Assembly: GCA_029009115.1 (NCBI GenBank)
Contig: JAQXJU010000065.1
Coordinates: forward strand, 11,336-75,335
Direction: 5' to 3'
Source of the DNA: Bacteroidales bacterium
Lineage (GTDB): Bacteria > Bacteroidota > Bacteroidia > Bacteroidales > UBA932
Length of the DNA: 64,000 nt
In this document: positions 2,787 through 49,175 of the stretch, one piece after another
Numbering within the stretch: the first letter of the stretch is position 1
How the letters are laid out: each line of letters begins with the position of its first letter
The notes under the pieces: model-generated
The model's input: the letters and a program-made list of their open reading frames with translations, nothing else
Told to the model about the DNA's origin: nothing
The model's database searches: none
Position numbers and translations under genes: made by a program

Positions 2787-2940
2787 CGAAAAATTTTCCT
2801 ATTACAAAGATTTTAAATAACTTTTTTCACACATTTTCGACACGAGATTTTTCACTTAACTAGCTTTGATTTGTGGAAGTTACGTACGGTGGTCAAAAAT
2901 ATTCTGCACAGTTTTCGACACGCGTTTTGCAAGTGCAAGT

Positions 2941-2957
2941 GGGGAGGGGAGGGAGGG
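2941..2957 (+). other. Canonical G-quadruplex motif GGGGAGGGGAGGGAGGG, embedded in a G-rich tract running to about 3010
   Basis: Four G3+ runs separated by single A residues, read directly. They are followed by GGGGG, GGG and GGGG runs up to the start of repeat array A. Confidence 0.6.
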
Positions 2958-3065
2958 TTAGCGGCGGGGGTGGAGCGGCGGAGCGGTTAGGGTTGGGCGG
3001 GGCTGGGATGGTTTGACGGAAACATGTCGAAAAAGTAAGTATTTCGGAGTATCCTCAGCCTTCAA

Positions 3066-3574
3066 CAAGACTCCGACAGGGGTAGCCCCGACCCGTGAAA
3101 TTCACCTCGAAAGACGATGTGCCTCTGAAGGCCTTCTGAAGGGGGTCAGCCCGAAAGGTGAATTTCACGAGACCACCCGACCGGCCCCAGAGGCACTTCT
3201 GACAGGGGTAGCCCCAACCGGTGAAATTCACCTTGAAAGACGATGTGCCTCTGAGGGCACTGTAGAGGGGGTAAGGCTCTGAGGTGAATTTCACGAGACT
3301 GCCCAACCGGCTTCTGAGGCACGTCTGACAGGGGTTACCTCGAGCCGTGAAATTCACCTCGGAACGCAATGTGCCTCTGAAGGCATTGTAGAGGGGGTAA
3401 GGCTCTGAGGTGGACACAAAGTCGTTCCACCTCCGAAGGGTATATGCCTCTGAAGGCCTTCTGATGGGGGTCAGTCCGGAAGGTGAATTTCACGAGATCG
3501 CCTAACCAGCCTCTCAGGCACTTCTGACAGGGGTCTCCCCAACCCGTGAAATTCACCTCGAAAGACAATGTGCC
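3066..3574 (+). repeat. Tandem mosaic repeat array A: 8 units of about 62-73 bp, each with a palindromic hairpin core
   Basis: Cores GTGAAATTCAC and GTGAATTTCAC lie at about 3095, 3158, 3221, 3284, 3347, 3482 and 3546. One variant unit carries GAGGTGGAcacaaagtcgtTCCACCTC at about 3405-3432. Unit bodies contain CTTCTGACAGGGGTAGCCCC or CTTCTGAAGGGGGTCAGCCC. Confidence 0.9.
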
Positions 3575-3647
3575 GATATTTTTTGAAAATTCTTTTAGGT
3601 GTTTTGCCTTGCCTTTGCGTATTAAATAACGTTAACACCGCCATATA

Positions 3648-4502
3648 ATGAATAACACCGCTGAAGACATTCAGGACAGAATGCTCTCACACGTTCTCAA
3701 ACACCACTTTTCGGCCATCACCGATAGTGAGCTTGAGTCGCGTCTTTCACAGATAAACAAAGAAATAGATTCTGCAGGCAGAAAGAAAAAGCGTCACAGC
3801 GCATTTGTCGTCTGCTTTGCGTCCGCAGCCGCCGTGGCAATTCTGCTGCTGGTGGGTGGGCTTGGCTTCAGGGCCGCCCGTGTCCCGGCTCTAGAGTATT
3901 ACAATTATGGCGAGAGTGCAATGAACGTCTATCTCCCCGACGGAACCCAGGTATGGATGAATCCCGGAGCAAGGCTTTCCCTCGACGGCAAGTTCAACCG
4001 CGAATGCAGGGACGTCACTCTCGAAGGTGAGGCTTATTTTGACGTGGCCCGCGATGAGCAGCGCCCCTTTACCGTCAGAACCGATGGATTCAGGGTCAGA
4101 GTCCTTGGAACCGTCTTCAATGTGCGGGCTCTTTCAGATGGAGATTCTGAAGTCACCCTTGCCAAAGGCTCGGTGATGATGCAGTCGCCCGAAGGGATGA
4201 ACCTTGTGCGTCTGATTCCGGGTCAGCAGGCTGTTCTTGACGCAGAAACCAGAGCTCTGGAAATACGTCAGACCTCAGTCGGCGATATGCTGATGCGCCA
4301 CTATGGTGCCGTGTCCCTCGATCACGCCACCATAGAAGAGATACTATCTGTCATCAACAGCAGTTACGGCTCCTCGGTAGAATGTTCCAAACCCTCTGAT
4401 ACCCAGACATACAACTTCTCATTCCAGAAAGATTCCCCTCTCGAGGATGTTCTGTCGATGCTGAGGTTCGTATGCCCAGGGCAGGAGTTTGTCATCAGAT
4501 AA
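3648..4502 (+). CDS. FecR-family anti-sigma factor (transmembrane sensor)
   Basis: 284 aa with one TM segment (FVVCFASAAAVAILLLVGGLGF) and a FecR-like periplasmic region (LPDGTQVWMNPGARLS...EAYFDV...FTVRT..FRVRVLGTVFNV). It lies immediately upstream of an STN-bearing SusC. Confidence 0.8.
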   Translation: MNNTAEDIQDRMLSHVLKHHFSAITDSELESRLSQINKEIDSAGRKKKRHSAFVVCFASAAAVAILLLVGGLGFRAARVPALEYYNYGESAMNVYLPDGTQVWMNPGARLSLDGKFNRECRDVTLEGEAYFDVARDEQRPFTVRTDGFRVRVLGTVFNVRALSDGDSEVTLAKGSVMMQSPEGMNLVRLIPGQQAVLDAETRALEIRQTSVGDMLMRHYGAVSLDHATIEEILSVINSSYGSSVECSKPSDTQTYNFSFQKDSPLEDVLSMLRFVCPGQEFVIR

Positions 4503-4520
4503 CCACTTAATTACTTAACA

Positions 4521-7500
4521 ATGGATCCAAGAAAGTTTCTTTCGGGTCTCCTCTTGATTCTGTGCATTTCCGTCAGCGTTCCTGCGGGTGCGGCGGATCC
4601 CGGCAGATATGATGTCCGCATATCGCTCGGGAAGACGAAAGTTGAGACCGTTCTGGGTGAAATCACTAAGCAGACAGGCATTTCTTTCTCATATGAGAAC
4701 TCCATCGGAGAAGAGCCTATGAAGGCGTTAAACGTCTTTTTCAGGAACAAGACCATCTCCGAAATGCTCGAATCGTTGCTTGGCGGGATGAACATCAGCT
4801 GGTCAGTGCACGGCCAGGTGGTGGCCCTGAGCTACAACAAGCCTGCAGCCAAGGCTGACGCCTCTGTCCGGTCCCCCGGAACTTTCAAGGTTTGGGGAAC
4901 GGTCAGCGACGGGACGGGCCTGCCTCTGCCGGGAGTAACGGTGCTTGCCTCTGCCCTCAGGCTCGGGACCCAGAGCGATGCTTCCGGAAAGTGGGAGATA
5001 AGCCTGCCAGAAGGACAGGTTGAACTGAGCTTTTCCTGCCTGGGATACAAGACCCTAACGCGCAGCGTATCGTCCGCCGGCAGCCTTGATGTCATACTCG
5101 AGGACGACAACCAACTGCTCGAGGAAATTGTTGTTGTGGGTTACGGCACCCAGAAAAAGGCTAATGTGACAGGCGCCGTGACTTCTATCGACTATGCCAG
5201 GAACGCCGAAGGGCGTCCTATCCTAAGCACCTCATCTTCGCTTGCCGGACTTGCCCCCGGTATGTCGGTCCTTCAGGGTTCGGGTCAGCCGGGCAGCGAC
5301 GGAGCTACCATACGCATCCGAGGAATAGGTTCCTTTACCTCGGCATCCTGCTCTCCTCTGGTACTTGTGGACGGAATCGAGTGGAGTATGGACAATGTCA
5401 ACCCCAACGACATCGAGTCCATCTCCGTTCTGAAAGATGCCGCATCCACCGCAATCTACGGAACCCGTGCCGCAAACGGTGTCATCCTTGTCACCACCAA
5501 GTCGGGGGCCGAGGCCCAACCGCGTATCAGCTACTCCTACAAGGGGATAATTCAGATGCCCTACAACAATCTTTCGCTGGTGTCGGACTATGCCGAGTAT
5601 ATGGAACTCTTCAACGAAGGCTGCGACAATGCCCGCACCTCGCACTCATTCAGCCAGACCAGCATTGATACATGGAAGAGTGCGGCTGCCGACCCCTATG
5701 CACTCAACGAGTACGGAGTCCCCAACTATGTCGCATACCCCAATACCGACTGGTTCGGCGAAATCTTCGACAACGGTTATTCTCAGGAGCACAACGTCAG
5801 CATCAGCGGAGGCAGTCGCAAGTCAAGATACCTCATATCAGGGGGATATCTCGACAATCAGGGTATTATGAACCGCTTTAATCTTGATTCCTCCAGCCAG
5901 AAGGCCAACTTCAGGACAAATGTCGAGGCCGACGTGCTCGACTGGTTCACTGTAGGTACCAAGATTCTGGGGCAGTGGCAGCAGTACGGCTGTGCCAACA
6001 TCTCGAACGGATTCAACTACCTGTATATGACCACTCCCGGTATCTATCCCGGAAGCGAGAATGCCTGGGGCCGCCCAGCCAATAACGAGGAGAGCCCCAA
6101 CGCCAACAATGTATTCGCCCAGATGGCGGGTTCTACCGGAAGCAAGCAGCAGTGGAGACTCAACGGAACTGTCTATGCCAAGATACGTCCCGTAAAGGGA
6201 GTCAGCATCGAGGGTACATTCAACTATTCCCCTACGCTCAAGGAGAACAAGACCTACAGCCGCGAGAACGGCTTCTGGGACTATGTCAAGGATGTCCGTT
6301 ATTCCAGCTCCGACCTTTCGAAGGCCGTTGCAAGCAATTCGATGTCAAGGACAAGCAAGATGTCCACCGACCTGCTTGTGCGTTATGACGGCTCATTCGG
6401 CGAACATACAATCGGGGCCATTGCCGGTTATTCAGCCATCCAGTACAGAACCTGGGGCTGGGGAGTCACCAAGAAGGGAGCCACCGACTGGGACCTTCAC
6501 GACCAGTCAACCTTCGAGACCATAGACTCGTCATCTTCAAGCCCGCTTGCCGGATGGGGCCTGCGTTCATACTTCGGAAGAGTGAACTATTCGCTGCGCG
6601 ACCGCTATCTGTTCGAGGCTAATCTCCGTGTGGACGGCTCGTCCAAGTTCGGATCAGCGACACGCTACGGTGTGTTTCCTTCGTTCTCAGCCGGTTGGAA
6701 GATGCACGAAGAAGAGTTTATGGCCCCTGTAAGAGGATGGCTCAATTCCTTGAAAATCAGGGCTTCGTGGGGCCAGACCGGAAACAACCAGGGTATAGGC
6801 GACTTTGCCTGGCAGGCTACCTACGCCACCGGAAAGGTCACTATCGACGGCAGCAATTCCACAGGCCTGTACATAGCTTCGATGAGCAACATCAACCTTA
6901 AGTGGGAAACGACATCGACCACCGATATCGGTATAGATGCAGCGATGCTCGACAGCCGCCTGACTGCCGAACTCGACTTCTACGACAAGAGCACTAACGA
7001 CATTCTCTTTACTCCGAGCGTGTATATGACTATGGGATTTGTCTCTCAGGTGCCCTCCAACCTCGGTTCGATGTGGAACAGGGGAGTGGAGCTCGCCCTC
7101 AACTGGAAGGATACCATAGGCAAAGACTTCTACTATCACGCCGGAGTTAACTTCTCATACAACCGCAACAGAGTTACTTCTTTCAAGGGAGAGCTTGTCA
7201 AGGAATGGCGCAACGGAAAGTATTACAACAATCTCAGTGACGTTTCCGAAAACTGGTCTTCGCCCGGAAAGCTCTGCGAAGGCCACGCGATTGGAGAGCA
7301 CTATATTCTCCAGCGCTACCGCGGAACAGGTGAAGGATATACCGGAGGCGGAGTTGACCCCGATGCCGGTCCTGTTGACGGAATGATACGCACCGAGACT
7401 GATATGAAATGGGTCAAGGCTATGATAGAGTCGGGCTATTCCTTCGGAGGCAAGACTATGACGACTCCCGACCAGTTGTGGTACGGCGACTTCATATATC

Positions 7501-8066
7501 AGGATACCAACGGCGACCGCAACTACGGAAACGAAGATGACAAAGAGTTCAACGGTCACAGTTCGACTCCTGCCGTGAATCTCGGCCTCAACCTTGGAGT
7601 TTCCTACAAGGGCTTCGACCTTAGTATGGTATGGGCGGGAGCATTCGGCTTCCATATCTACTGGGCATCGGAGTATTACAACTCCTCGACAGTGACCTGG
7701 GGCTACGGAATAGGACGCAGGGTTGCCGACGACCACTATTTCTACGACCCAGAGAATCCTTCTGACCCCAGGACCAACATCGACGGAACCTATCCGCGAC
7801 TCTACAAGGGGGCATCCCGTAACAAGGAAGTCTCCGACTTCTACGAATACCGCGGAGACTATCTCAAACTCAAGAACCTGCAACTGGGATACACCCTTCC
7901 GAAGAGCATCTCCGACAAGGCCTCCATCAACCAGTTAAGGTTCTATGTGTCGGGCGAGAACCTTCTGACTCTCACTTCTTTCCCCGGTATGGATCCTGAA
8001 AGGGGCTCCTCTATCGGATACCCTCTGATGAGGCAGATTTCTCTAGGAGCACAAATCACATTCTAA
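4521..8066 (+). CDS. SusC/RagA-family TonB-dependent outer-membrane transporter with an N-terminal STN signalling extension
   Basis: 1181 aa with a signal peptide. It has an STN-like segment (DVRISLGKTKVETVLGEITKQTGISFSYEN), a CarboxypepD_reg-like segment (FKVWGTVSDGTGLPLPGVTV), a plug (EEIVVVGYGTQKK, IRIRGIGS) and a terminal ...GAQITF. A SusD gene follows. Confidence 0.92.
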   Translation: MDPRKFLSGLLLILCISVSVPAGAADPGRYDVRISLGKTKVETVLGEITKQTGISFSYENSIGEEPMKALNVFFRNKTISEMLESLLGGMNISWSVHGQVVALSYNKPAAKADASVRSPGTFKVWGTVSDGTGLPLPGVTVLASALRLGTQSDASGKWEISLPEGQVELSFSCLGYKTLTRSVSSAGSLDVILEDDNQLLEEIVVVGYGTQKKANVTGAVTSIDYARNAEGRPILSTSSSLAGLAPGMSVLQGSGQPGSDGATIRIRGIGSFTSASCSPLVLVDGIEWSMDNVNPNDIESISVLKDAASTAIYGTRAANGVILVTTKSGAEAQPRISYSYKGIIQMPYNNLSLVSDYAEYMELFNEGCDNARTSHSFSQTSIDTWKSAAADPYALNEYGVPNYVAYPNTDWFGEIFDNGYSQEHNVSISGGSRKSRYLISGGYLDNQGIMNRFNLDSSSQKANFRTNVEADVLDWFTVGTKILGQWQQYGCANISNGFNYLYMTTPGIYPGSENAWGRPANNEESPNANNVFAQMAGSTGSKQQWRLNGTVYAKIRPVKGVSIEGTFNYSPTLKENKTYSRENGFWDYVKDVRYSSSDLSKAVASNSMSRTSKMSTDLLVRYDGSFGEHTIGAIAGYSAIQYRTWGWGVTKKGATDWDLHDQSTFETIDSSSSSPLAGWGLRSYFGRVNYSLRDRYLFEANLRVDGSSKFGSATRYGVFPSFSAGWKMHEEEFMAPVRGWLNSLKIRASWGQTGNNQGIGDFAWQATYATGKVTIDGSNSTGLYIASMSNINLKWETTSTTDIGIDAAMLDSRLTAELDFYDKSTNDILFTPSVYMTMGFVSQVPSNLGSMWNRGVELALNWKDTIGKDFYYHAGVNFSYNRNRVTSFKGELVKEWRNGKYYNNLSDVSENWSSPGKLCEGHAIGEHYILQRYRGTGEGYTGGGVDPDAGPVDGMIRTETDMKWVKAMIESGYSFGGKTMTTPDQLWYGDFIYQDTNGDRNYGNEDDKEFNGHSSTPAVNLGLNLGVSYKGFDLSMVWAGAFGFHIYWASEYYNSSTVTWGYGIGRRVADDHYFYDPENPSDPRTNIDGTYPRLYKGASRNKEVSDFYEYRGDYLKLKNLQLGYTLPKSISDKASINQLRFYVSGENLLTLTSFPGMDPERGSSIGYPLMRQISLGAQITF

Positions 8067-8078
8067 ACGGAAGTCAGT

Positions 8079-9935
8079 ATGAAAAAGATTGTTACAATAA
8101 CACTTTCGGCTCTTCTGGCTGTCTCTTGTGCAGATATGCTGAATATTTCGCCCGACAACCAGATTGCCAGCGGAAATATGTGGACTACCGAGTCTCTTGC
8201 CGACAAGGGAATGGCGGGCCTGTATGTGAATTTTTATCGCAAAGACCTGTCACGCATACAGTTACGCTATAACGACTTTACCGGAATCAACCGTCAGGGT
8301 TGGATGGGGATGGATTTTGCCTGTGACTTCGTTTCAGACAACTATCCCCTGAGAGCCCTTTCCGATGCCCGCAAGGATGCCACGGAGTTTGTGGTATGGT
8401 ACGAGTGGAAGTGGGCATACACCAATGTTCACGCCTGCAATGACGCCATCGCCAACCTCTCGAGGGCGGGCCTGCCCGTTGCAAAATACCAGAGGTACCT
8501 GTGCGAGGCCAAATTCCTCAGGGCCTGGACATATACCCGTCTTAACGAGATTTTCGGAGGTATGCCGAGCGGAAGTCCCACTCACTATACCCCGGGTGGA
8601 GTTCCCCTCTATCTCGAGGTCATATCCGAAGACCAGTGCACCCGCAGCCAGTCTTCTGCCGAGGCTGTATGGAAGGCTATAATCGATGACCTGACGGACT
8701 GCATCAACAACGAATACTTCCCCGACAACACCCTCTCTGCCAACTACGGGCGGCCTTCAAAGGGTGCCGCCTACGCGCTCCGGGGCAAGGCCTATATGTA
8801 TCTCGAGAAGTATGATCTGGCAGCCGCCGACTTTGAGAAGGTGGGCACCTGCGGATATTCCATCTTCAAGGGCAAGTACATCGACTTCTTCACCGAAGCC
8901 AACGAGAAGAGCAGCGAGATGATCTACCCCCTCCAGTTTGGTGAGGAGGCAGGATACAGCGACAACCTCCAGCTTATGATTGGAGGCCGCGATTCCTGGA
9001 ACAGCTGGTCCAACGCCCGTCCGAGCTCAGACTTCGTCAACTATTTTCAGAATGCCGACGGAACTGCCTTCAGCTGGAGCAAGGTTCCGGGGCTCGAAGA
9101 CTGGGACAAGCTCACTCCAGCGCAGAGAGAGGTATTCTTCCTCAGGGATGGTATCAAGTCGAAGACCTGGTCTAAGGCCGACAAGGGCACCATCGACGAG
9201 AGAATAGCAAAGATTGGCAAGACTGTTTTCGACACCTACTACCTTGACAACGGCAACGAGGCCCGCATACGCAAGGCGTACGAGAATCGCGACCCCCGCC
9301 TCAAGCAGATTGTACTTACCCCATACGAGAGTTTCGACACCTTCAAGGACCCTACCGACAATGGTGGCAAGATTCAGATTGGCAAGCAGTTGCGCTGGCC
9401 ATTCCTGGACGAGGGCGACAACGGCGGAGACTATTACATTGGGAGTTTCAACAATATGTATGTCTTCAAGAAGTTCAACTGCACCCGTCCCGAGGACCTC
9501 ACCGACAGGCTCCGCTGCAAGATGGACTGGCCGCTTATCCGCTACACCGACGTTTACCTGATGCTGGCCGAGGCTTATGCCCAGACCGGTCAGAATACAA
9601 AGGCCGTGGCAATCGTTAACGAAATCCGCAGTCGCGCAGGAATGCCCCCTGTATCTGTCTCGGACAAGGAAGAATTGCTCGAAGCCGTCCGCTACGAGCG
9701 TAGAATCGAGCTCTGTCTTGAGGGACAGAACTACTTCGACGAGTGGAGGTGGGGAACATACCGCAGGATGAAGTTCCAGGGCAGGGATGTTTACGGAGGT
9801 TCTCCCTGGTGGGGAGACTGGGAAGGATATAAGTATAACTGGTACTATACTCCAGATATGTATCCCTGGCCCGCTCCTTCAGGAGAATGCCAGCGCAATC
9901 CTAATCTCAAGAAAAAGGAAGGTTGGGCATATTGA
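8079..9935 (+). CDS. SusD/RagB-family nutrient-binding lipoprotein
   Basis: 618 aa with a lipobox (LLAVSCAD) and SusD-like helical motifs (YLCEAKFLRAWTYTRL, RYTDVYLMLAEAYAQTG, VRYERRIELCLEGQNYFDEWRWG). Paired with the upstream SusC. Confidence 0.92.
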   Translation: MKKIVTITLSALLAVSCADMLNISPDNQIASGNMWTTESLADKGMAGLYVNFYRKDLSRIQLRYNDFTGINRQGWMGMDFACDFVSDNYPLRALSDARKDATEFVVWYEWKWAYTNVHACNDAIANLSRAGLPVAKYQRYLCEAKFLRAWTYTRLNEIFGGMPSGSPTHYTPGGVPLYLEVISEDQCTRSQSSAEAVWKAIIDDLTDCINNEYFPDNTLSANYGRPSKGAAYALRGKAYMYLEKYDLAAADFEKVGTCGYSIFKGKYIDFFTEANEKSSEMIYPLQFGEEAGYSDNLQLMIGGRDSWNSWSNARPSSDFVNYFQNADGTAFSWSKVPGLEDWDKLTPAQREVFFLRDGIKSKTWSKADKGTIDERIAKIGKTVFDTYYLDNGNEARIRKAYENRDPRLKQIVLTPYESFDTFKDPTDNGGKIQIGKQLRWPFLDEGDNGGDYYIGSFNNMYVFKKFNCTRPEDLTDRLRCKMDWPLIRYTDVYLMLAEAYAQTGQNTKAVAIVNEIRSRAGMPPVSVSDKEELLEAVRYERRIELCLEGQNYFDEWRWGTYRRMKFQGRDVYGGSPWWGDWEGYKYNWYYTPDMYPWPAPSGECQRNPNLKKKEGWAY

Positions 9936-31441: not shown

Positions 31442-32041
31442 ATGGAATACCTGCTTATTATTGTCTCTGCGATATTCGTCAACAATATCGTCCTGGCCCA
31501 GTTCCTTGGCATATGCCCGTTCCTGGGAGTATCGAACAAGCTTTCGACGGCAACCGGAATGTCCGGAGCAGTGTGCTTTGTCATCACTCTTGCCACAGTC
31601 GTAACATACCTTCTGAACAACTATGTCCTTGTTCCTCTGGGACTCGGATTCCTGCAGACCATCGCTTTCATTCTTGTGATTGCAGCTCTTGTGCAGATGG
31701 TCGAAATCGTCCTTAAGAAGATAAGCCCCAGCCTCTATCAGGCACTGGGAATCTTCCTCCCTCTCATTACCACCAACTGCGCCGTTCTGGGTGTGGCCAT
31801 CACCGTAGTATCCAAGGAGTTTAGCTTTGGCGGTGCTGCTCATATGCTCAACCTCGCAGAGGCAGTGGTCTATGCTCTTGCAACTTCTATCGGCTATGGT
31901 CTTGCTATGATACTCTTTGCGGGTCTTCGCGAGCACCTCTCCGGAAACAGCATCCCCAAACCCTTCAAGGGCCTTCCTATTGCTCTGATAACCGCGAGCA
32001 TAATGGCAATGGCCTTCCTCGGATTCTCGGGGATTGTCTGA
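31442..32041 (+). CDS. rnfA: Rnf complex subunit A
   Basis: 199 aa with NNIVLAQFLGICPFLGVS and ITTNCAVLGVA. It ends ...AFLGFSGIV. The stop codon lies in the first bases of a downstream repeat copy. Confidence 0.92.
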   Translation: MEYLLIIVSAIFVNNIVLAQFLGICPFLGVSNKLSTATGMSGAVCFVITLATVVTYLLNNYVLVPLGLGFLQTIAFILVIAALVQMVEIVLKKISPSLYQALGIFLPLITTNCAVLGVAITVVSKEFSFGGAAHMLNLAEAVVYALATSIGYGLAMILFAGLREHLSGNSIPKPFKGLPIALITASIMAMAFLGFSGIV

Positions 32042-32150
32042 TAACCGCGAGCATTGTGGCAATGGCCTTGCGGAGATTCGGAGGATTGTCTTTTAACCGC
32101 GAGCATAATGACAATGGCCTTACGGATATTCGGAAGATTGTCTGATAACC
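31985..32150 (+). repeat. Tandem 52-53-bp repeat derived from the last 53 nt of rnfA: 3 copies plus a 9-nt partial fourth
   Basis: Copies run 31985-32037, 32038-32089 and 32090-32141. Each begins CT(G/T)(A/T)TAACCGCGAGCAT..GGCCTT. The partial copy CTGATAACC is at 32142-32150. Confidence 0.9.
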
Positions 32151-32251: not shown

Positions 32252-32692
32252 ATGTTTAAAAGAATGAAAAAGATTATTGCAGTTATAGCAACTGTCTTCG
32301 CATTTGCAGCAGTCGCTGCCGCCCAGCCCCGTACCATCGGTATCCGTGGAACATTCGGCGGAGAACTCTCTTATCAGCACACCCTTGGTGCCAACTTCGC
32401 AGAGGCTGACCTAGGTTGGTCAAATGATGGTATCTATGTGACTGGTACTTACAACTTTGTCTTTGCCAGCGAAGGTGATTTCAACTTCTATGCCGGCCCC
32501 GGTGCTGCACTGGGTATTTACAACAATGGAGAAACCAGCGGTCTTAACCTCGGTATCGCCGGTATGGTAGGTGCTGAATACAACTTCAGTATCCCCATGA
32601 CCATCTCCCTTGACTGGAGGCCTTGCTTCAACTTCCTGTATGGAGGATTCGGATACAATGGTTTCGGTCTGGCACTCCGCTACAGATTCTAA
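32252..32692 (+). CDS. Small outer-membrane beta-barrel protein
   Basis: 146 aa with a signal peptide (AFAAVAAAQ), alternating aromatic/Gly beta-strand pattern and a C-terminal ...LALRYRF. Confidence 0.7.
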   Translation: MFKRMKKIIAVIATVFAFAAVAAAQPRTIGIRGTFGGELSYQHTLGANFAEADLGWSNDGIYVTGTYNFVFASEGDFNFYAGPGAALGIYNNGETSGLNLGIAGMVGAEYNFSIPMTISLDWRPCFNFLYGGFGYNGFGLALRYRF

Positions 32693-32710: not shown

Positions 32711-32753
32711 ATCCCGCCCTGGCATTGAACTAGATCCCAGGGCGGGATTTTTG
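32711..32753 (+). terminator. Rho-independent terminator after the OMP gene
   Basis: Perfect 12-bp stem ATCCCGCCCTGG / CCAGGGCGGGAT followed by TTTTT. Confidence 0.8.
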
Positions 32754-32790
32754 GTGTTAGTAGGTGTTTTTGGTGTTAGTAGAGATTCTT

Positions 32791-32900
32791 GGGATCGTAG
32801 GGTTTGGGGAATTAGTAGGGTTTGGGGGATTGTAGGGCTTCTTCGGCTTGCAGGGTTTTGGGGGATTGTAGGGATTCTTGAGCTTGCAGGGTTTTGGGGG
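32791..32900 (+). repeat. G-tract repeat region (GGGTTTGGGG / GGGTTTTGGGGG units), including a 36-bp direct duplication
   Basis: The region contains GGG..GGGTTTGGGG..GGGTTTGGGGG..GGG..GGGTTTTGGGGG..GGG..GGGTTTTGGGGG. GCTTGCAGGGTTTTGGGGGATTGT occurs twice. Confidence 0.8.
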
Positions 32901-32947
32901 ATTGTGTAAGCGTCTCCGCGATTATGTGTTGATATTGGTTCTGTCGT

Positions 32948-33605
32948 AGGCACCCCGGAAGGCATATAGGGCAAGCTCGTGAAATTCACCTTTCGGGCCG
33001 ACCCCCTCCAGAATGCCTTCTGGGGCAGGTTGCCTTCGGAGGTGGAACGACTTTGTATCCACCTCGAAGCCTCACCCCCTTCACAGGTACCTCAGAGGCA
33101 CATTGCCTTTCGAGGTGAATTTCACCGGTTGATGCTACCCCTGCCAGAAGTGCCTGAGAGGCCGATTGGACGATCTCGTGAAATTCACCTTCCAAGCCGA
33201 CCCCCGTCAGAATGCCTTCTGGGGCACATTGACTTTTGAGGTGAATTTCACCGGTTGGGGCTACCCCTGTCAGAAGTACCTCAGAGGCCGATTCGTCAAT
33301 CTCGTGAAATTCACCTTTCGGGCTGACCCCTGTCAGAATGCCTTCTGGGGCAGGTTGCCTTTCGAGGTGGAACAATTTTGTATCCACCTCGAAGCCTCAC
33401 CACCACTACAATACCTTCAGAGGCACATTGCCTTTTGAGGTGAATTTCACCGGTTGATGCTACCCCTGCCAGAAGTGCCTGAGAGGCCGATTGGACAATC
33501 TCGTGAAATTCACCTTTCGGGCCAACCCCTGCCAGAAGCACTTCAGAGGCAGGTTGCCTTTCGAGGTGAATTTCACCGGTTCGGGCAACCCTTACCCACC
33601 CCCCA
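32948..33605 (-). repeat. Tandem mosaic repeat array B: same family as A and C, opposite orientation, 10 units
   Basis: Cores lie at about 32979, 33115, 33178, 33241, 33304, 33440, 33503 and 33565. Two variant hairpins GAGGTGGAAC...TATCCACCTC lie at about 33038-33066 and 33364-33390. CTACCCCTGTCAGAAGT is the reverse complement of the A/C body. Confidence 0.9.
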
Positions 33606-33725: not shown

Positions 33726-33799
33726 GGTTCCGTAGCTCAGTTGGATAGAGCAACAGCCTTCTAAGCTGTGGGTCGCGCGTTCGAGTCGCGCCGGAATCA
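33726..33799 (+). tRNA. tRNA-Arg (anticodon TCT)
   Basis: Hand-folded 74-nt cloverleaf. Acceptor GGTTCCG/CGGAATC, D stem GCTC/GAGC, anticodon stem ACAGC/GCTGT with loop CTTCTAA, T arm GCGCG-TTCGAGT-CGCGC, discriminator A. Confidence 0.9.
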
Positions 33800-33877: not shown

Positions 33878-34076
33878 TGAGGCAATCCCAACATATCATT
33901 CCAATCGCAACATATCATCCCAATCCCTCAGTATCAAGCCCAAGATAGTATGTCAAGAATCCTCTATCAACCGATTGACAGCCTTTCAGCAATAAGACTA
34001 CCAATTTTGATCAAGCCTGCGAGATGCACTTTCACCGATAATCATTATATTTGAAACTTGCCGAACAAATCGCAAT

Positions 34077-36809
34077 ATGGCAGATAGTCTTCATATTCAG
34101 GATTGCGCAGCGGTCTTACTGTGTGCCGGAAAGGGTACACGGATGAATGACAGTTCCCGGAACAAGGTCAGTTTCGACTGCGCTGGCGACAGCGTAATCC
34201 GACGGATAGTCAGGCAGATGCGCCAGGGAGGTGTGAACCTCTTCGCGGTGGTTGTGGGTTATCGTGCCGAGACCGTAATGGCTGCACTCAGCGGAGAAGA
34301 AGGAGTATTTTTTGTATATCAAAAAGATCAAAAAGGCACAGGGGATGCCGCTCGTCTTGGACTCGCAGCTCTAAAGGCCCAGAATTTCAGGGGCAAGGTG
34401 CTTGTTGCCGTCGGTGACAGGATAGTCAGTAGTGAAGTTATTTCTGGTTTGCTGTCAAGATTCGCCTCCCCCAGTCTCAGTGCCGATGCAACTCCTGCCG
34501 ATGCAACTCCTGTCGATGTAACCCCTGCCGTTGCAAGTCCTGCCGATGCAAGTCCTGCCGCCTCCCCCAGGCTCAGCGCCGATGCAACCCCTGCCGATGC
34601 AAGCCCTGCCGATGCAACCTCTGCCACCTCCCCCAGGCCCAACACCGATTCAACCCCTGTCGGTGTCGGGCCCGTGGCAAAATCTCCCAAGGCAGTTTTC
34701 GGCGTCCAGCCCCTTGCGCACAATCCCAGGGGAGGTCATGTGCTGATGTCAATGGACAAGCCTTGCGGGATTGTGGAGATGGCAGATGTCAGAAGATTAT
34801 CTGACGGTGATTTGGTAACCAAGGCCGGAGTCAGTTTCAGCGCCGATCAAGTCAGGAATGCTCCGTACGCCAATGCATCGCTTTATTGCTTTGACCTTGA
34901 TGCAGCTGTCGAAGCTACCGGCTCCCTCACAAGCGATAATGCCCAGAAAGAGTTCTATCTTACTGATACACTGGAGTATTTTGCAATCAGGGGTGAGGCG
35001 GATGTTTTTGTCGTCCGCGACCCTGAGAGTATGTCCTCGTTCAGCACGAAGCCTGAGCTCAGAAGCATAAGCACACGCTTTATGCGAAATGCCTCCAGCC
35101 TGATTGCTGAGTTGAAAGGCGGCGGTCTCGACAAAGAACTCCAGAGTATCTATGGCAGCGGCTTTCAAGAACAGAAGCCAAGATATATTGCTCTTATAGA
35201 GCATTTTATATCTCGATATGGTGACCGTAGGATTGTCCTGACCCGAGCCCCGGGGAGGGTAAACCTTATGGGGAGGCACATCGACCACCGCGGCGGTGGA
35301 ATTAACGTTATGGCGATAGACCGTGACCTTCTGTGCGTAAGTTCCCCAAGGGAAGACGATTCAATCTGCCTGACGAATACTGATGCACAGTTTCCCGATC
35401 GTTGCTTCCGTCTGTCAGAGCAGCTTCCGGAGGGGGTCCTTCGTGCCCTTGCTCTACCTTTCGACAAAACCGGTGCCGCCGGAGAGCCCGGAGGGGATGC
35501 TCAACCCTTCGACAGAACCGGTACCGCCGGGGAGTCCGGAGGTGATGCTCATCTAGACAGAACCGGTGCCGCCGGGGAGTCCGGAGGTGATGCTTATCTA
35601 GACAGAACCGGTGCCGCCAGAGAGCCCGGAGGGGATGCTCTACCCTTCGACACCCGCTGCTGGCTGGACTATCTTGCGTCCGAGGCAGCTGTCCGGAGCC
35701 TGGAAGATACCCGCGGCGACTGGGCCAACTACGTCAAGGCCGCAGTCCTGAGGCTGCAGTTCGAGACACCTATGCTCCTCTCCGGAATGGATATGGCCTT
35801 CAGCGGAAGTATCCCTGTTGCAGCCGGTCTCAGTTCGTCATCGGCAGTGGTCGTAGCTTCAGCCGAGGCAGTCTGCGCTCTTAACTGCTTGAATATTACC
35901 CAGCAACGCTTTATCGAACTCTGCGGAGAAGGCGAATGGTTCGTCGGCTCCAGAGGTGGGGCTGGGGACCACGCCGCTATGAAGTGCTCACGCAAAGGAT
36001 GCATCACCCATCTCGACTTCAAGCCCTTCAGGGTAGGCGAGAGGACAGATTTTTCTGACGAATACGCTGTGATTGTGGCAGATACCTGCATCAAATCGCG
36101 AAAGAGCGAAGGCAGCCGCGACATATTCAATTCAAAGGTTGCCGCTTCTGATATCGCCTTTATGATTCTCCGTCAGAGGTACCCTGAATACGGTCTGCGA
36201 GAATTCCGCGATTTGGCTGATCTTCCATCAGAGACTGTTTACAAAATGATGCTGAGCGTGCCTCATACTGCCACACGCGAAGAGTTGAGGACCCTGCTCC
36301 CCGAGTATTCCAATAGCCTGAATCAGTGCTTTTCGAGCCACGCGGACCCCGGCGCATACGACCTGCGCTCAGTGGCCTTGTTCGGAATCGCCGAGTGCCT
36401 CAGATCCCGAAAGTTCCAGCAGCTGCTCTCGTGCGGAGATTATCTTGCCATCGGAGAGATGATGAAAACCAGCCATCTGGGCGATGCAGTTCCGGGCGAG
36501 AATTACCCCGATTCCCGGCTTGAGGAGATGGCGCGCGACGGAGTTGACCTCTCTCAGGTTCCCGGGGGATACCGTTGCTCAACCCAGGCAATCGACGCTT
36601 TGTGCCGGATGCTGGACGAGTTCCCCGGTGTTCTCGGAAGCCAGATGGTCGGAGCCGGTCTCGGGGGATGTGTCGTAGCTCTTGTCCGCAAGGATGCCTC
36701 CTTGAGGGTTGTCGAGATGCTGCGCAGAGAATACTACGACAAGAACGGCCTCGATTCGGGCTCGGCCCATATATTCGTCCCCTCCTCGGGTACGGCGGTA
36801 ATATTCTGA
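34077..36809 (+). CDS. Bifunctional sugar-1-phosphate nucleotidyltransferase (GlmU/RmlA-like, N-terminal) / GHMP sugar kinase (galactokinase-like, C-terminal), with two internal tandem-repeat insertions
   Basis: 910 aa. N-terminal motifs are AAVLLCAGKGTRM, VVVGYRAETV, QKDQKGTGDAA, VLVAVGDRIV and NAQKEFYLTD. C-terminal motifs are APGRVNLMGRHIDHRGGGIN (galactokinase signature type), PVAAGLSSSSAVVVA (GHMP motif II) and MVGAGLGGCVVAL (motif III). Confidence 0.8.
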   Translation: MADSLHIQDCAAVLLCAGKGTRMNDSSRNKVSFDCAGDSVIRRIVRQMRQGGVNLFAVVVGYRAETVMAALSGEEGVFFVYQKDQKGTGDAARLGLAALKAQNFRGKVLVAVGDRIVSSEVISGLLSRFASPSLSADATPADATPVDVTPAVASPADASPAASPRLSADATPADASPADATSATSPRPNTDSTPVGVGPVAKSPKAVFGVQPLAHNPRGGHVLMSMDKPCGIVEMADVRRLSDGDLVTKAGVSFSADQVRNAPYANASLYCFDLDAAVEATGSLTSDNAQKEFYLTDTLEYFAIRGEADVFVVRDPESMSSFSTKPELRSISTRFMRNASSLIAELKGGGLDKELQSIYGSGFQEQKPRYIALIEHFISRYGDRRIVLTRAPGRVNLMGRHIDHRGGGINVMAIDRDLLCVSSPREDDSICLTNTDAQFPDRCFRLSEQLPEGVLRALALPFDKTGAAGEPGGDAQPFDRTGTAGESGGDAHLDRTGAAGESGGDAYLDRTGAAREPGGDALPFDTRCWLDYLASEAAVRSLEDTRGDWANYVKAAVLRLQFETPMLLSGMDMAFSGSIPVAAGLSSSSAVVVASAEAVCALNCLNITQQRFIELCGEGEWFVGSRGGAGDHAAMKCSRKGCITHLDFKPFRVGERTDFSDEYAVIVADTCIKSRKSEGSRDIFNSKVAASDIAFMILRQRYPEYGLREFRDLADLPSETVYKMMLSVPHTATREELRTLLPEYSNSLNQCFSSHADPGAYDLRSVALFGIAECLRSRKFQQLLSCGDYLAIGEMMKTSHLGDAVPGENYPDSRLEEMARDGVDLSQVPGGYRCSTQAIDALCRMLDEFPGVLGSQMVGAGLGGCVVALVRKDASLRVVEMLRREYYDKNGLDSGSAHIFVPSSGTAVIF
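34462..34680 (+). repeat. In-frame 15-nt minisatellite (GCCGATGCAACTCCT-like, encoding ADATP/ADASP/VDVTP) with a higher-order duplication, inside the nucleotidyltransferase domain
   Basis: It encodes SPSLSADATPADATPVDVTPAVASPADASPAASPRLSADATPADASPADATSATSPRPNTDSTPVGVGP. The block CGCCTCCCCCAG(T/G)CTCAG(T/C)GCCGATGCAAC recurs at 34462 and 34559. Confidence 0.9.
35455..35655 (+). repeat. In-frame 48/48/45/45-nt tandem repeat inside the GHMP kinase domain
   Basis: It encodes PFDKTGAAGEPGGDAQ / PFDRTGTAGESGGDAH / LDRTGAAGESGGDAY / LDRTGAAREPGGDAL / PFDT. Confidence 0.9.
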
Positions 36810-44292: not shown

Positions 44293-44470
44293 CACGCTAC
44301 CTCCTCCCGGCTCGCTTGGTCCCTGGGTAGCTCTCCGGTTGGTTCCGGCCTATCCTCGGCCCCCGGCAAGCCCCCGGTCCTCAATCGGCCCGACAGAGCC
44401 CCCTCCTCCCGGTGCCCCTCCCGGCCCGACAGATCCCCCTCCCCCCGGAGCCCCTCCCGGCAGCCTACTG
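44293..44470 (+). repeat. C-rich intergenic tract (G-tracts on the minus strand) with a 36-bp direct duplication
   Basis: CGGCCCGACAGAGCCCCCTCCTCCCGGTGCCCCTCC is followed by CGGCCCGACAGATCCCCCTCCCCCCGGAGCCCCTCC (about 44387-44458). There are many C3-C6 runs. Confidence 0.8.
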
Positions 44471-44493
44471 CTAAATGAATGAAACAGAACAAT

Positions 44494-46590
44494 ATGAAAT
44501 TTACAACATCGCTTGCGGCCTGTCTGTTCCTGGCCGCGTCAATCACATCCTGCAAGATGCAACAGAACCCTCTTCTTTCCGAATCGGCCCTGCCATTCGG
44601 TGCTCCCCAGTTCGACAAGATCAAAACCTCAGATTATCTTCCCGCATTCCAGCAGGCGATTGCCTCCGGAAAGGCAGAAATAGATGCCATAGTAGCTAAT
44701 CCCGACGCTCCGACCTTCGAGAATACCATCGAGGCTCTCGAGTTCAGCGGAGCCGCTCTAGACAAGGTGGCTTCCATCTTCTACAACCTTATGGAAGCCG
44801 ACACGAACGAAGAGATGCAGCAGCTCGCCGAGCAGCTTTCGCCTATGATGACCGAATATTCTTTGTATATCTCGTTGAACGAGAAGCTGTTCGAGCGTAT
44901 CAAGGCAGTATGGGAGCAGCGCGAATCCCTCAATCTTGCCAAGGACCAACAGCGCCTCCTCGAAAAAACATACAAGAGTTTCGTCCGCGGCGGCGCCAAT
45001 CTCGACCCCGAGCAGAAGAGCCGATACAGCGCTCTCAGCGAAGAGATTTCTCTCCTTCAGCTGCAGTTCGGAAAGAATCTGCTTGCCGCCACCAACGCTT
45101 TCACCCTCGACCTCACTGACGAAAGCCAGCTTGCCGGATTGCCCCAGTACGTAATAGATATGGGTGCGTCCACCGCCGCCGAGAAAGGCAAGAGCGGATG
45201 GGTTTACGACCTCACTGCTCCGAGCTATCTTCCGTTTATGAAGTTCAGCACCCGTCGCGATCTTCGCGAGACACTCTACAAGGCCTACCGCAGCCGCAGT
45301 GTCTCGGGCGAATTCGACAACCGCGAGGTTTGCGCCCAGATAGCAAGCAAGCGTATTGAGGTAGCCAATCTCCTCGGATACAAGACCTACGCCGACTATG
45401 TCCTCGACGACAGAATGCTCGGCAGCGTGCAGAAAGTCCGCGAGTTTATGGCAGAGCTCTCCGAACCCTCTCTCCCCATTGCACGCAAGGAGGTAGCCAC
45501 CGTCGAGGCCTATGCCCGCCGCAACGGATTCACCGAGGCCGTCTTCCAGCCATGGGATTTCACCTATTGGTCCGAGAAGTACCGTGCCGAGGCGTATGAC
45601 CTCTCCGACGAGGAACTAAAGCCCTACTTCCGCCTCGAAGACTGCATCGATGCCGTTCTGGGTCTGGCTACCCGTCTTTATGGCATTAGCTTCAACGAGC
45701 GCAAAGATATCCCCGTTTACCACAAGGACGTAAAGGTCTATGAGGTGTCAGACTCCGACGGAAGGCATCTGGCACTCTTTTACTGCGACTTCTTTCCTCG
45801 CGAGAGCAAGAGGGGAGGAGCCTGGATGACCGAATTCCGCGGGCAGAGCATACGTAACGGCGTTGAGATGCGCCCCTTCATCTCCATAGTATGCAATCTG
45901 TCCAAGCCCACCGCCAGCGCACCTTCTCTGCTGACCCACGACGAACTCACCACCTTCCTCCACGAGTTTGGCCATTCGCTTCACGGAATTCTTGCCGAAG
46001 GCCGCTACGGATCGCTTACCGGTACCAATGTTGACCACGACTTCGTTGAACTTCCCTCGCAGATAATGGAGAACTTCGCCTTCCAGCCCGAGTGGCTCAA
46101 GACTTTTGCACGTCACTACGAGACAGGTGAGCTTATCTCCGACGAGCTCATTGCCAAGATAGTCGCTGCAAAGAACTATCTTTCAGCCTATTATCAGATA
46201 GGGCAGCTCCAGTACGGCACTATCGATATGGCGTGGCACACTCTTACCGAGGCTCCAACTGTCGATGCCGTCGAGTTTGAAAGGCAGGCAGTTTCCTCGC
46301 TCCGCACTCTTCCGAGTGTTCCCGGAACCTGCACTTCTACGTCATTCAGCCATATCTTCAAGGGAGGATACGCTGCCGGTTATTACTCCTACAAGTGGGC
46401 GGAGGTGCTCGAGGCTGATGCCTGGTCTCTATTCGAAGAGAAAGGGATCTTCAACCCCGAGGTTTCATCTGCCTTCCGCCGCGAGATACTCAGCCGCGGT
46501 TCCTCTGAAGACGAGGCTGTGATGTTCCGTAACTTCCGCGGACACGACCCCCAGCCCTCAGCCCTCCTGCACAAGCTCGGCATCAAGTAA
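44494..46590 (+). CDS. dcp: M3-family peptidyl-dipeptidase (Dcp-like), lipoprotein
   Basis: ATG at 44494 (MKFTTSLAACLFLAASITSCK). Zinc motif HEFGHSLHG. M3 length and layout. Confidence 0.88.
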   Translation: MKFTTSLAACLFLAASITSCKMQQNPLLSESALPFGAPQFDKIKTSDYLPAFQQAIASGKAEIDAIVANPDAPTFENTIEALEFSGAALDKVASIFYNLMEADTNEEMQQLAEQLSPMMTEYSLYISLNEKLFERIKAVWEQRESLNLAKDQQRLLEKTYKSFVRGGANLDPEQKSRYSALSEEISLLQLQFGKNLLAATNAFTLDLTDESQLAGLPQYVIDMGASTAAEKGKSGWVYDLTAPSYLPFMKFSTRRDLRETLYKAYRSRSVSGEFDNREVCAQIASKRIEVANLLGYKTYADYVLDDRMLGSVQKVREFMAELSEPSLPIARKEVATVEAYARRNGFTEAVFQPWDFTYWSEKYRAEAYDLSDEELKPYFRLEDCIDAVLGLATRLYGISFNERKDIPVYHKDVKVYEVSDSDGRHLALFYCDFFPRESKRGGAWMTEFRGQSIRNGVEMRPFISIVCNLSKPTASAPSLLTHDELTTFLHEFGHSLHGILAEGRYGSLTGTNVDHDFVELPSQIMENFAFQPEWLKTFARHYETGELISDELIAKIVAAKNYLSAYYQIGQLQYGTIDMAWHTLTEAPTVDAVEFERQAVSSLRTLPSVPGTCTSTSFSHIFKGGYAAGYYSYKWAEVLEADAWSLFEEKGIFNPEVSSAFRREILSRGSSEDEAVMFRNFRGHDPQPSALLHKLGIK

Positions 46591-47258
46591 TCCCCAGAAG
46601 GCCTTTTGACGGGGGGTGAAGCCGACTGGTGAAATTCACCTCGCAAGGCAATGTGCCTCAGAGGGCATTCTGGAGGGGGTGCGGCTCCGAGGTGGACACA
46701 AAGTCGTTCCACCTCAAAAGGCAACCTGCCTCTGAGGCACTTCTGGCAGGGGGAGCCCCGACCGATGAAATTCACCTCGGAAGGCAATGTGCCTCTGAAG
46801 GCATTGTAGAGGGGGTGAGGCTCCGAGGTGGATACAAAGTCGTTCCACCTCTAAGACCAATATGCCCCAGAAGCCCTTCTGAAGGGGGGCAACCCAAAAG
46901 GTGAATTTCACGAGATCATCGAATCGGCCTCTGAGGCACTTCTGGCAGGGGGAGCCCCGACTGGTGAAATTCACCTCGAAAGGCAATGTGCCTGAGAAGC
47001 CCTTCTGACGGGGGTCAGTCCAAAAGGTGAATTTCACGAGATTCCCCAATCGGCCTCTCAAGTACTTCTGACAGGGGTAGCCCTGACCCGTGAAATTCAC
47101 CTCTGAAACCAATGTGCCTCTGAATGCCTTCTGACGGGGGTCGTCCCAAAAGGTCAATTTCACGAGATCATCGAATCGGCCTCTGAGGCCCTTCTGACAG
47201 GGGTTGCCCCAACCGGTGAAATTCGCCTCTGAAACCAACCTGCCCCCTTCACCTCCCC
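46591..47258 (+). repeat. Tandem mosaic repeat array C: same family and orientation as A, 10 units, starting one base after the dcp stop
   Basis: Cores lie at about 46629, 46764 (ATGAAATTCAC), 46891, 46954, 47027, 47090, 47153 (GTCAATTTCAC) and 47217 (GTGAAATTCGC). Two variant hairpins GAGGTGGA(C/T)ACAAAGTCGTTCCACCTC lie at about 46689-46715 and 46825-46851. Confidence 0.9.
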
Positions 47259-47262
47259 TAAC

Positions 47263-47306
47263 AAAAAAGGAGAGTGACGAAGTCAATAGACTTTCTGTCA
47301 CTCTCC
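47263..47306 (-). terminator. Rho-independent terminator for the minus-strand reductase gene
   Basis: Perfect 10-bp stem GGAGAGTGAC / GTCACTCTCC (47269-47278 and 47297-47306). On the minus strand it is followed by TTTTTT (47263-47268). Confidence 0.8.
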
Positions 47307-47330
47307 TTTAGTGATCATCAGCGTGGCTTC

Positions 47331-47462
47331 TTACCTAGCGCCAATGTATTTGTGCAGCGTGGCGCGGACTGTTCCCTTGCCGGCGAACAGTTCTTCTTAC
47401 CTTGCGCTGACGTATTTGTGGAGTGTGGCGCGGACTGCTCCCTTGCCGGCGAACAGTTCCTT
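47331..47462 (-). repeat. Tandem 66-bp duplication of the last 20 codons plus stop of the reductase gene
   Basis: Copy at 47397-47459 encodes ELFAGKGAVRATLHKYVSAR*. The downstream copy at 47331-47393 encodes ELFAGKGTVRATLHKYIGAR* in the same frame. Confidence 0.9.
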
Positions 47463-49082: not shown

Positions 49083-49103
49083 CGAATATAAAGGCTTTCC
49101 TGC

Positions 49104-49175
49104 AACCCCCTACGGCACTAAAGCCCACCAGCCTCCATCAACCCCCTACGCCACTAAAGCCTACCAGCCTCCATA
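49104..49175 (+). repeat. 36-bp tandem direct repeat (2 copies)
   Basis: AACCCCCTACGGCACTAAAGCCCACCAGCCTCCATC is followed by AACCCCCTACGCCACTAAAGCCTACCAGCCTCCATA. Confidence 0.85.

Follow-up and report, generated by a model that had tools for sequence, protein, structure and literature searches.

The 64,000-nt stretch of DNA analysed here (the window) contains three intergenic arrays of tandem units that constitute a real, previously undescribed, lineage-specific interspersed repeat, and not a new kind of system. The repeat belongs to an uncultured pig-gut Bacteroidales bacterium, Candidatus Cryptobacteroides. The interpretation we favour, with a probability of about 60%, is that the arrays represent a lineage-specific, non-coding and selfish or neutral interspersed repeat at the DNA level, which is similar to REP/BIME or MITE elements and would depend on a putative trans-acting protein. 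The original prediction was supported insofar as the repeat is non-coding and intergenic, forms a mosaic at several loci and contains palindromic boxes.

The three arrays hold 28 units of three types, termed A, B and C, and occupy 2.9% of the 64-kb window. Array A is located on the plus strand at 3066–3574 (from 3063 in the parts list) and comprises eight units in the order A B A B' A C B A, of which the B' unit has a C-like 5' half and the final A unit is cut off at 3574; its cores lie at 3095, 3158, 3221, 3284, 3347, 3410 (C), 3483 and 3546. The further family members expected at 32948–33605 (inverted) and 46591–47258 were confirmed. The former, array B (to 33608 in the parts list), is on the minus strand, where its ten units read A B A C B A B A C B. 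The latter, array C, is on the plus strand with ten units in the order A C A C B A B A B A, and starts immediately 3' of the TAA stop codon of an M3 peptidase gene (44479–46590). Unit HMMs run over the whole window found 13 A, 10 B and 5 C units, with no solitary units outside the three arrays. Tandem Repeats Finder returned periods of 63 and 126 bp at all three loci (including 32972–33591 and 46592–47238), in agreement with the proposed head-to-tail units of approximately 63 bp forming 126-bp pairs. The motif GTGAAWTTCAC had 20 exact matches in the window, every one within the three arrays, compared to 0.01 expected from shuffled sequences.

The three unit types emerged when typing was anchored on the core. 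The A unit (63 bp) consists of up_A followed by GTGAAATTCAC and CTCGAAAGGCAATGTGCC, the B unit (63 bp) of up_B followed by GTGAATTTCAC and GAGATnnnCCAATCGGCC, and the C unit (73 bp) of GAGGTGGAyACAAAGTCGTTCCACCTC set between a 5' half resembling B and a 3' half resembling A. Two boxes that are almost palindromic recur in every monomer, namely GTGAA(A/T)TTCAC as the core and GCCTCtGAGGC as the junction, and the scaffolds around them have the same orientation. The inverted 9-mers CAGAGGCAC (3188–3196) and GTGCCTCTG (3245–3253) described in the original prediction were present, as was the variant hairpin GAGGTGGAcacaaagtcgtTCCACCTC at 3407–3433, which is the C-type core GAGGTGGA-N11-TCCACCTC with an 8-bp stem and an 11-nt loop. 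Further copies of this C core were located at 33039–33065, 33364–33390, 46689–46715 and 46825–46851, and its loop sequence is also conserved. The most conserved element of the family is the 14-nt core box, exemplified by CGTGAAATTCACCT at 3094–3107 on the plus strand; its reverse complement, AGGTGAATTTCACG (3156–3169), is found 63 bp further downstream. Invariant blocks (CTTCTG, GGGG(G)T, the 14-nt core with its flanks, and CAATGTGCCTC / AATCGGCCTC) are interleaved with near-saturated variable blocks of 6–7 nt.

The alternation of AAATT and AATTT cores between neighbouring units could be verified in the sequence. The consensus sequences of A and B were, however, identical at 39 of 63 positions in register and in the same orientation, as direct diverged copies, while A and inverted B shared only approximately 35% identity outside the core. 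The polarity flip is limited to the 14-nt core and the 9-nt junction box. The analogy to BIMEs consequently holds in a broad sense, but not for whole units, which are direct.

Further arrays were read together with their flanks (L096, L097, L098, L099, L100, two on L101 lying 9 kb apart, and L102). L102 has the same array ORF as the second L101 array (L101b) and was therefore not counted, giving 11 distinct loci in total. All 11 were intergenic, in 3' regions and promoter-distal spacers, and relative to the upstream gene four arrays were oriented forward and four reverse. The order A C B A B was found in nine of the 11 loci, mostly as A B A C B A B spanning approximately 405–450 bp (L079, L097, L101a, L096, window array B and L098). 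Arrays from unrelated loci were colinear, with 79–86% identity over 300–570 nt, and their flanks were unrelated. Such a shared order and colinearity between unrelated flanks suggest that a preformed composite of approximately 405–450 bp was dispersed, rather than that units were amplified independently at each locus.

Five arrays (L079, L096, L097, L100 and L101a) terminate exactly after GGTGAATTTCAC, at the B core, and L097 spans CCGGTGAAATTCACC to GGTGAATTTCACGG, i.e. inverted cores at both ends. Other than in L097, the left ends were ragged, and marginal units were degenerate (L099). In array orientation, the left flank tends to be G- or purine-rich and the right flank C-rich, and no target-site duplication was seen in the flanking bases. 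Among 95 units, the core-to-core distance was 63 bp after an A or B unit and 73 bp after a C unit in 79 of 80 cases; the exception, of 126 bp, spans a degenerate core. The 95 units contained no indels, despite a divergence of approximately 25% between units. A length of 63 bp corresponds to 6.0 helical turns, and the C unit, the single length-variant type, adds 10 bp or roughly one turn, which is compatible with a phased nucleoprotein structure. In a positional orthology test, unit identity was approximately 75–78% within arrays and between arrays alike, so that no clear positional orthology is available to date the dispersal. Every occurrence with both ends assembled had at least five units, and neither solitary copies nor simple dimers were seen.

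The concern that the arrays could be an assembly artefact was dispelled, since orthologous arrays recur in independent metagenome assemblies, retrieved by exact-protein look-ups of the flanking genes, and in the NCBI MAG GCA_034100485.1. These orthologous arrays differed in unit number and type, and the anticipated unit-number polymorphism between strains was thereby found. At the array A locus, L16 was the first gene of the ribosomal cluster in 10 contigs from different ENA samples and in GCA_034100485.1, and the same array was contained in, or ended, five of the L16-cluster contigs. In the 96% identical L079 the array read A B A C B A B, and beyond it an Impact_N gene stood where the window has a FecR gene. 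In L080, with a 99.5% identical flank, A B A C was found where the window has A B A B' A C, corresponding to a 126-bp B'A insertion in the window. Six contigs end at array B, or inside it, downstream of the OMP-like gene, and in 94%-identical strains (L090 among the comparisons) the second unit of array B was A-type, not C-type. The exact-protein look-up of the M3 peptidase gave no record. Remodelling in 63- or 126-bp units is thus evident between close strains, and the short-read contigs examined consistently broke at arrays.

Arrays also coincided with synteny breaks in the strain comparison. With Impact_N (L079 915–1574) at the far side in the 96%-identical MAG GCA_034100485.1, the breakpoint falls inside the array. 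The ribosomal-protein cluster S14, L5, L24, L14, S17, L29 and L16 (216–2693, minus strand) starts at L16, which has a Bacteroidetes-type -7 box of its own, TAtcTTTG (2779–2786), and lacks an S3 gene upstream. As the same arrangement was present in 10 independent contigs, the split of S10/spc between S3 and L16 is a real lineage trait, and array A is located at this split. The FecR anti-sigma, SusC and SusD genes (3648–9935) had no ECF sigma factor gene upstream.

The surroundings of the arrays differ from locus to locus. The left flank of array A holds a G-rich, GGTTAGGG-like low-complexity tract (2940–3010, plus strand), the copy number of which differs among the window, L079 and L080. Array B is flanked by a G-rich tandem tract with 19- and 36-nt periods (32746–32905, plus strand), which is C-rich in array orientation. 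Upstream of array B, the OMP-like gene (32252–32692) ends in an intrinsic terminator (32711–32752, plus strand; -33.5 kcal/mol, followed by a U-run), which places the array between a terminator and a tRNA promoter. Array C lies between the M3 peptidase stop codon and a bidirectional terminator hairpin (47266–47306) that separates this gene from a convergent mannitol-dehydrogenase-like gene, and the array is therefore predicted to be part of a 3'UTR. The L096 array, like array B, follows a terminator, and the L100 array, like array C, precedes one.

Other repeats were observed in the same DNA. A 52-nt unit present 3.3 times begins inside the end of rnfA (31442–32041; tandem duplication 31979–32150) and is also found in related strains, and a 66-nt unit present twice (47327–47459) spans the stop codon of the mannitol-dehydrogenase-like gene (47397–48986, minus strand). 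G- or C-rich intergenic low-complexity tracts, some of them GGTTAGGG-like, were located at 2940–3010, 32746–32905, 33883–33927, 44386–44461 and 49103–49174, and those adjoining arrays were strain-variable in copy number. The lineage seems prone to intergenic tandem duplication. A 910-aa fusion of an NTP-transferase and a galactokinase-like GHMP kinase (34077–36809) has two internal low-complexity coding repeats (34481–34659 and 35450–35652).

The window encodes housekeeping genes and polysaccharide-utilisation loci, and, as had been stated, Pfam annotation of its genes revealed no transposase, integrase, HUH or Cas gene. A CRISPR array was rejected, as the variable blocks are at most 7 nt long and lie inside homologous units, and cas genes are absent from the window. 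Outside the window, a PDDEXK_2/Rpn-like gene of the recombination-promoting nuclease family (L101 1741–2715) lies approximately 200 nt from the array at 1081–1529. This is a candidate, but as the only such adjacency among 11 loci it is probably coincidental.

The distribution of the family was assessed in DNA, RNA and protein databases. A two-core DNA pattern had no related match in GTDB representative genomes, JGI metagenomes or IMG/VR; the chance matches that it did give, including a GTGAAATTCAC repeat in a Thermoanaerobaculia MAG and sites in Prevotella, were by blastn not family members. The Thermoanaerobaculia MAG, DASYSN01, carries on several contigs tandem units of approximately 19 nt containing CGTGAAATTCACGAGGAACAA (L004 6340–6500), and has the GTGAAATTCAC palindrome, nothing more, in common with the present family. 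Searches of viral contigs with C-hairpin and B-unit patterns, and blastn against phages and plasmids, also found nothing. In Rfam, the only match in the window at the gathering threshold was a tRNA (33726–33799), and at E ≤ 10 positions 2900–3700 gave only noise, with scores far below the gathering scores. No description of the repeat family was found in the literature searched, which is in line with the proposal that it is undescribed in Bacteroidales.

Since the DNA pattern yielded nothing related, the open frames of the arrays, which arise from the in-frame 63-bp period, were translated and searched against protein databases. This retrieved 168 clusters of array-derived pseudo-proteins, 116 from the forward and 52 from the reverse frame, nearly all on contigs of 0.5–1.5 kb. 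One of the 168 was labelled Candidatus Cryptobacteroides sp., a genus placed in Bacteroidales, and this is also the label of the closest named homologue of the OMP gene nearby. None of the eight further arrays that were read came from outside this lineage. A sister species with 65% amino-acid identity at the OMP gene, represented by contigs of 58–95 kb, has compact intergenic regions at the Rnf-OMP locus, and the one 10-kb locus read contained no units. An empty site was sought by this comparison and not found, the synteny downstream of the OMP gene being different. Together, the negative scans and the one unit-free 10-kb locus of the sister species indicate that the family appears confined to a narrow lineage.

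In the interpretation that we favour, the canonical A-B-A-C-B-A-B composite (approximately 405–450 bp) would have been dispersed as a whole to many intergenic sites, as suggested by the shared order. Each copy has then been remodelled, as the strain comparison shows, by unequal crossing-over or gene conversion in 63- or 126-bp steps. Conversion is suggested by the patchy differences concentrated in variable blocks, and ectopic gene conversion between arrays could alternatively have homogenised the unit order. As neither a target-site duplication nor an empty site was found, it is solely the shared internal order that points to mobility. At the DNA level the arrays would be passengers, selfish or neutral, with the invariant 14-nt core as a putative recognition or cleavage site of a trans-acting protein, e.g. 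a hairpin-recognising transposase or recombinase. The genes of the window include no candidate for such a factor. Such a role of the core is suggested by the sharp array ends at this element, the strict length conservation and the interleaving of invariant with saturated blocks. Co-transcription of an array, as predicted at locus C, would have the side effect of placing stable hairpins in the 3'UTR.

A possible but rather unlikely variant is that the arrays were left behind by an as yet undescribed mobilisation system of Bacteroidota, in which an enzyme that recognises hairpins would cut and paste, or copy, a composite of approximately 450 bp whose termini are the 14-nt core. The spacings of 63 and 73 bp, or 6 and 7 helical turns, would then reflect the geometry of a nucleoprotein complex, and the enzyme would not be a classical RAYT, since the GTAG/CGTC tag is lacking.

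A host function could alternatively underlie the strict spacing of approximately 6 and 7 helical turns, in which case the boxes would be sites, all on one helical face, for a dimeric DNA-binding or nucleoid protein. The constancy of the spacing over 95 indel-free units and the invariant boxes set between near-saturated blocks are what such phased binding sites would be expected to show, and the arrays are neutral in orientation to genes, some of them lying outside transcription units. However, confinement to a narrow lineage, with absence at one sister-species locus, is unusual for a core cellular function; moreover, unit number varies freely between strains, marginal units decay, and no candidate protein is known. 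We consider this explanation improbable.

Improbable to much the same degree, if not slightly more so, is a true REP/BIME family, in which the core hairpins are REPs amplified by a RAYT encoded elsewhere in the genome. REPs have been defined by a stem of 5–13 bp, a loop of 2–20 nt and an unpaired GTAG/CGTC at one end; they are Proteobacterial, extragenic and present in many copies per genome, and the gene for the RAYT, an IS200/IS605-like Y1 protein, is flanked by REPs (Di Nocera et al. 2013, PMC3733652). Stem-loops of these dimensions are formed by the A core (GGTGA-AAT-TCACC, with a 5-bp stem) and by the C core with its 8-bp stem. In further agreement, core polarity alternates at a distance of 52 bp, similar to the HH/TT dimers with 20–100-bp spacers (PMC3733652), and the arrays are clustered in tandem, extragenic and sharply ended at a hairpin. 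In terms of abundance, three arrays were found in 64 kb, in addition to the 168 metagenomic ORF clusters. The GTAG/CGTC that defines the REP superfamilies is, however, absent from the position abutting the hairpin, the core being flanked by ACC(G/C) and CTC in A and by AAG and GAG in B. A GTAG does occur 10 nt upstream, but in the loop of the other small hairpin and in approximately half of the A units only. Whole units being direct rather than inverted, the absence of a RAYT from the window and the lack of solitary units likewise speak against this identity.

The original prediction had argued for selection on structure, and an RNA-level variant of this would see the arrays as 3'UTR stabilisers, attenuators or small-RNA arrays. 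Both array strands indeed folded better than shuffled sequences (z = -4.8 and -5.3), array C is preceded by a stop codon and followed by a terminator, and the C unit retains a hairpin in which a G-C pair replaces an A-T pair. This replacement, by which GTGAA/TTCAC of the A and B cores becomes GTGGA/TCCAC in C together with the 11-nt loop, is the sole symmetric change. As an all-against-all scan for column covariation proved too noisy, explicit structure tests were used in its place. The proposed 65-nt stem-loop was 90.5% paired among 19 internal A units, but showed no compensatory changes and did not exceed shuffles. The A-unit hairpin (-27.6 kcal/mol) is about as stable as a mutually exclusive core-to-core hairpin (-29.3 kcal/mol), and neither candidate fold had a single compensatory change, mutations in the core remaining uncompensated. 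The RNAalifold covariation terms were close to zero (-0.11 and +0.05 kcal/mol), and the B core formed only a 4-bp stem, no different from shuffles. These tests gave no support for a selected fold, whether of RNA or of DNA. Equal folding of both strands is expected of any DNA palindrome, and the 4:4 orientation, the location of array B and the L096 array between terminator and promoter, the lack of an Rfam match and the lack of an internal Bacteroidetes-type promoter motif on inspection all weigh against a structured RNA, which is thus quite unlikely.

Less likely still is independent tandem amplification of a short seed by replication slippage at each locus, with no dispersal of a composite. 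Other tandem duplications do occur in the intergenic DNA and gene 3' ends of this genome, and changes in unit number do arise in situ, but the non-trivial order A C B A B is common to nine of 11 unrelated loci and colinearity across loci extends to 570 nt. The seed would, moreover, still have to reach every locus.

Coding capacity was examined in the arrays as well. Column entropy by codon phase was 0.67/0.58/0.66 for A and 0.52/0.64/0.59 for B, with no period of 3. The 73-bp C units shift the reading frame, and stop codons occur in every frame. Inspection of the window arrays revealed no ATG on either strand, and array ORFs accordingly start at GTG, TTG or a flanking ATG. The forward translation, LTGVAPTGEIHLERQCASEaL, weakly resembles the repeat LTGnAPsvEItHfrQPAaDAL in residues ~600–1200 of P0311, a 1225-aa protein of 21-aa repeats (34% identity, E = 3e-7 summed over nine repeats); the likeness to the large repeat proteins P0301, P0311 and P0322 was judged to be chance, one short motif being multiplied by repetition. 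Coding repeats, or remnants of a gene for a 21-residue repeat protein, can be dismissed as extremely unlikely: the 63-bp period does equal 21 codons and two frames are largely open, but third positions are not excessively variable, frame is broken by C units, the arrays contain no ATG, and they are found at 11 distinct loci in either orientation, some immediately behind a stop codon and some between a terminator and a promoter.

The arrays have consequences for genome assembly and possibly for genome evolution. Arrays that make up approximately 3% of the window, and at which contigs stop, help to explain why MAGs of the Cryptobacteroides lineage are fragmented, and they mark likely points of misassembly or rearrangement. 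Given that they coincide with synteny breaks, such as the ribosomal operon split between S3 and L16 and the anti-sigma/SusC/SusD locus without a sigma factor, the arrays may drive genome rearrangement in an abundant livestock-gut bacterium. Their unit-number polymorphism makes them usable as strain markers, and translating spurious array ORFs for a protein-database search proved an efficient route to such repeats in metagenomes.

Several known repeat systems share features with the family. Streptococcus pneumoniae BOX elements are modular (boxA-boxB(n)-boxC), intergenic and able to form stable secondary structure. As in BOX, there are few unit types in a preferred order, the number of internal modules varies, and the elements are intergenic and structure-forming; there is, however, no sequence relationship, and the present family has one exact unit length and two alternating subtypes. 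Mycobacterial MIRUs, for which translation in phase with the flanking operon genes has been proposed, and other VNTRs are comparable in having, at many loci, intergenic tandem units of approximately 50–100 bp whose copy number differs between strains and whose length is a multiple of 3. In contrast to MIRUs, the present arrays have no coding signature, occur in both orientations and in some cases lie outside operons. MITEs such as the neisserial Correia and enterobacterial ERIC elements are similar in being non-coding, and the composite of approximately 400–450 bp at many intergenic sites corresponds to these. The inverted core boxes at the ends of L097, the cleanest copy, further resemble terminal inverted repeats. 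Unlike MITEs, the arrays have no detected target-site duplication, ragged left ends, and a strict 63-bp interior that expands and contracts.

Compared to REP/BIME elements, the differences are the lack of GTAG/CGTC at the hairpin, the direct whole units, the minimum of at least five units and the host phylum Bacteroidota. In BIMEs of E. coli, whole REPs strictly alternate in orientation, with conserved linkers between them, whereas here only the core and junction boxes alternate in polarity. The likenesses lie in the extragenic location, the stem-loops of alternating polarity at a fixed spacing within 20–100 bp, the tandem clusters and the conserved linker modules, and both kinds of element are often found beside gene 3' ends, strain-variable and lineage-specific. 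With this family, the interspersed palindromic repeats, known mostly from Proteobacteria, gain a representative in Bacteroidota, one with an unusually regular, satellite-like architecture that is built up from a 63-bp monomer through a 126-bp dimer to a composite of approximately 450 bp.
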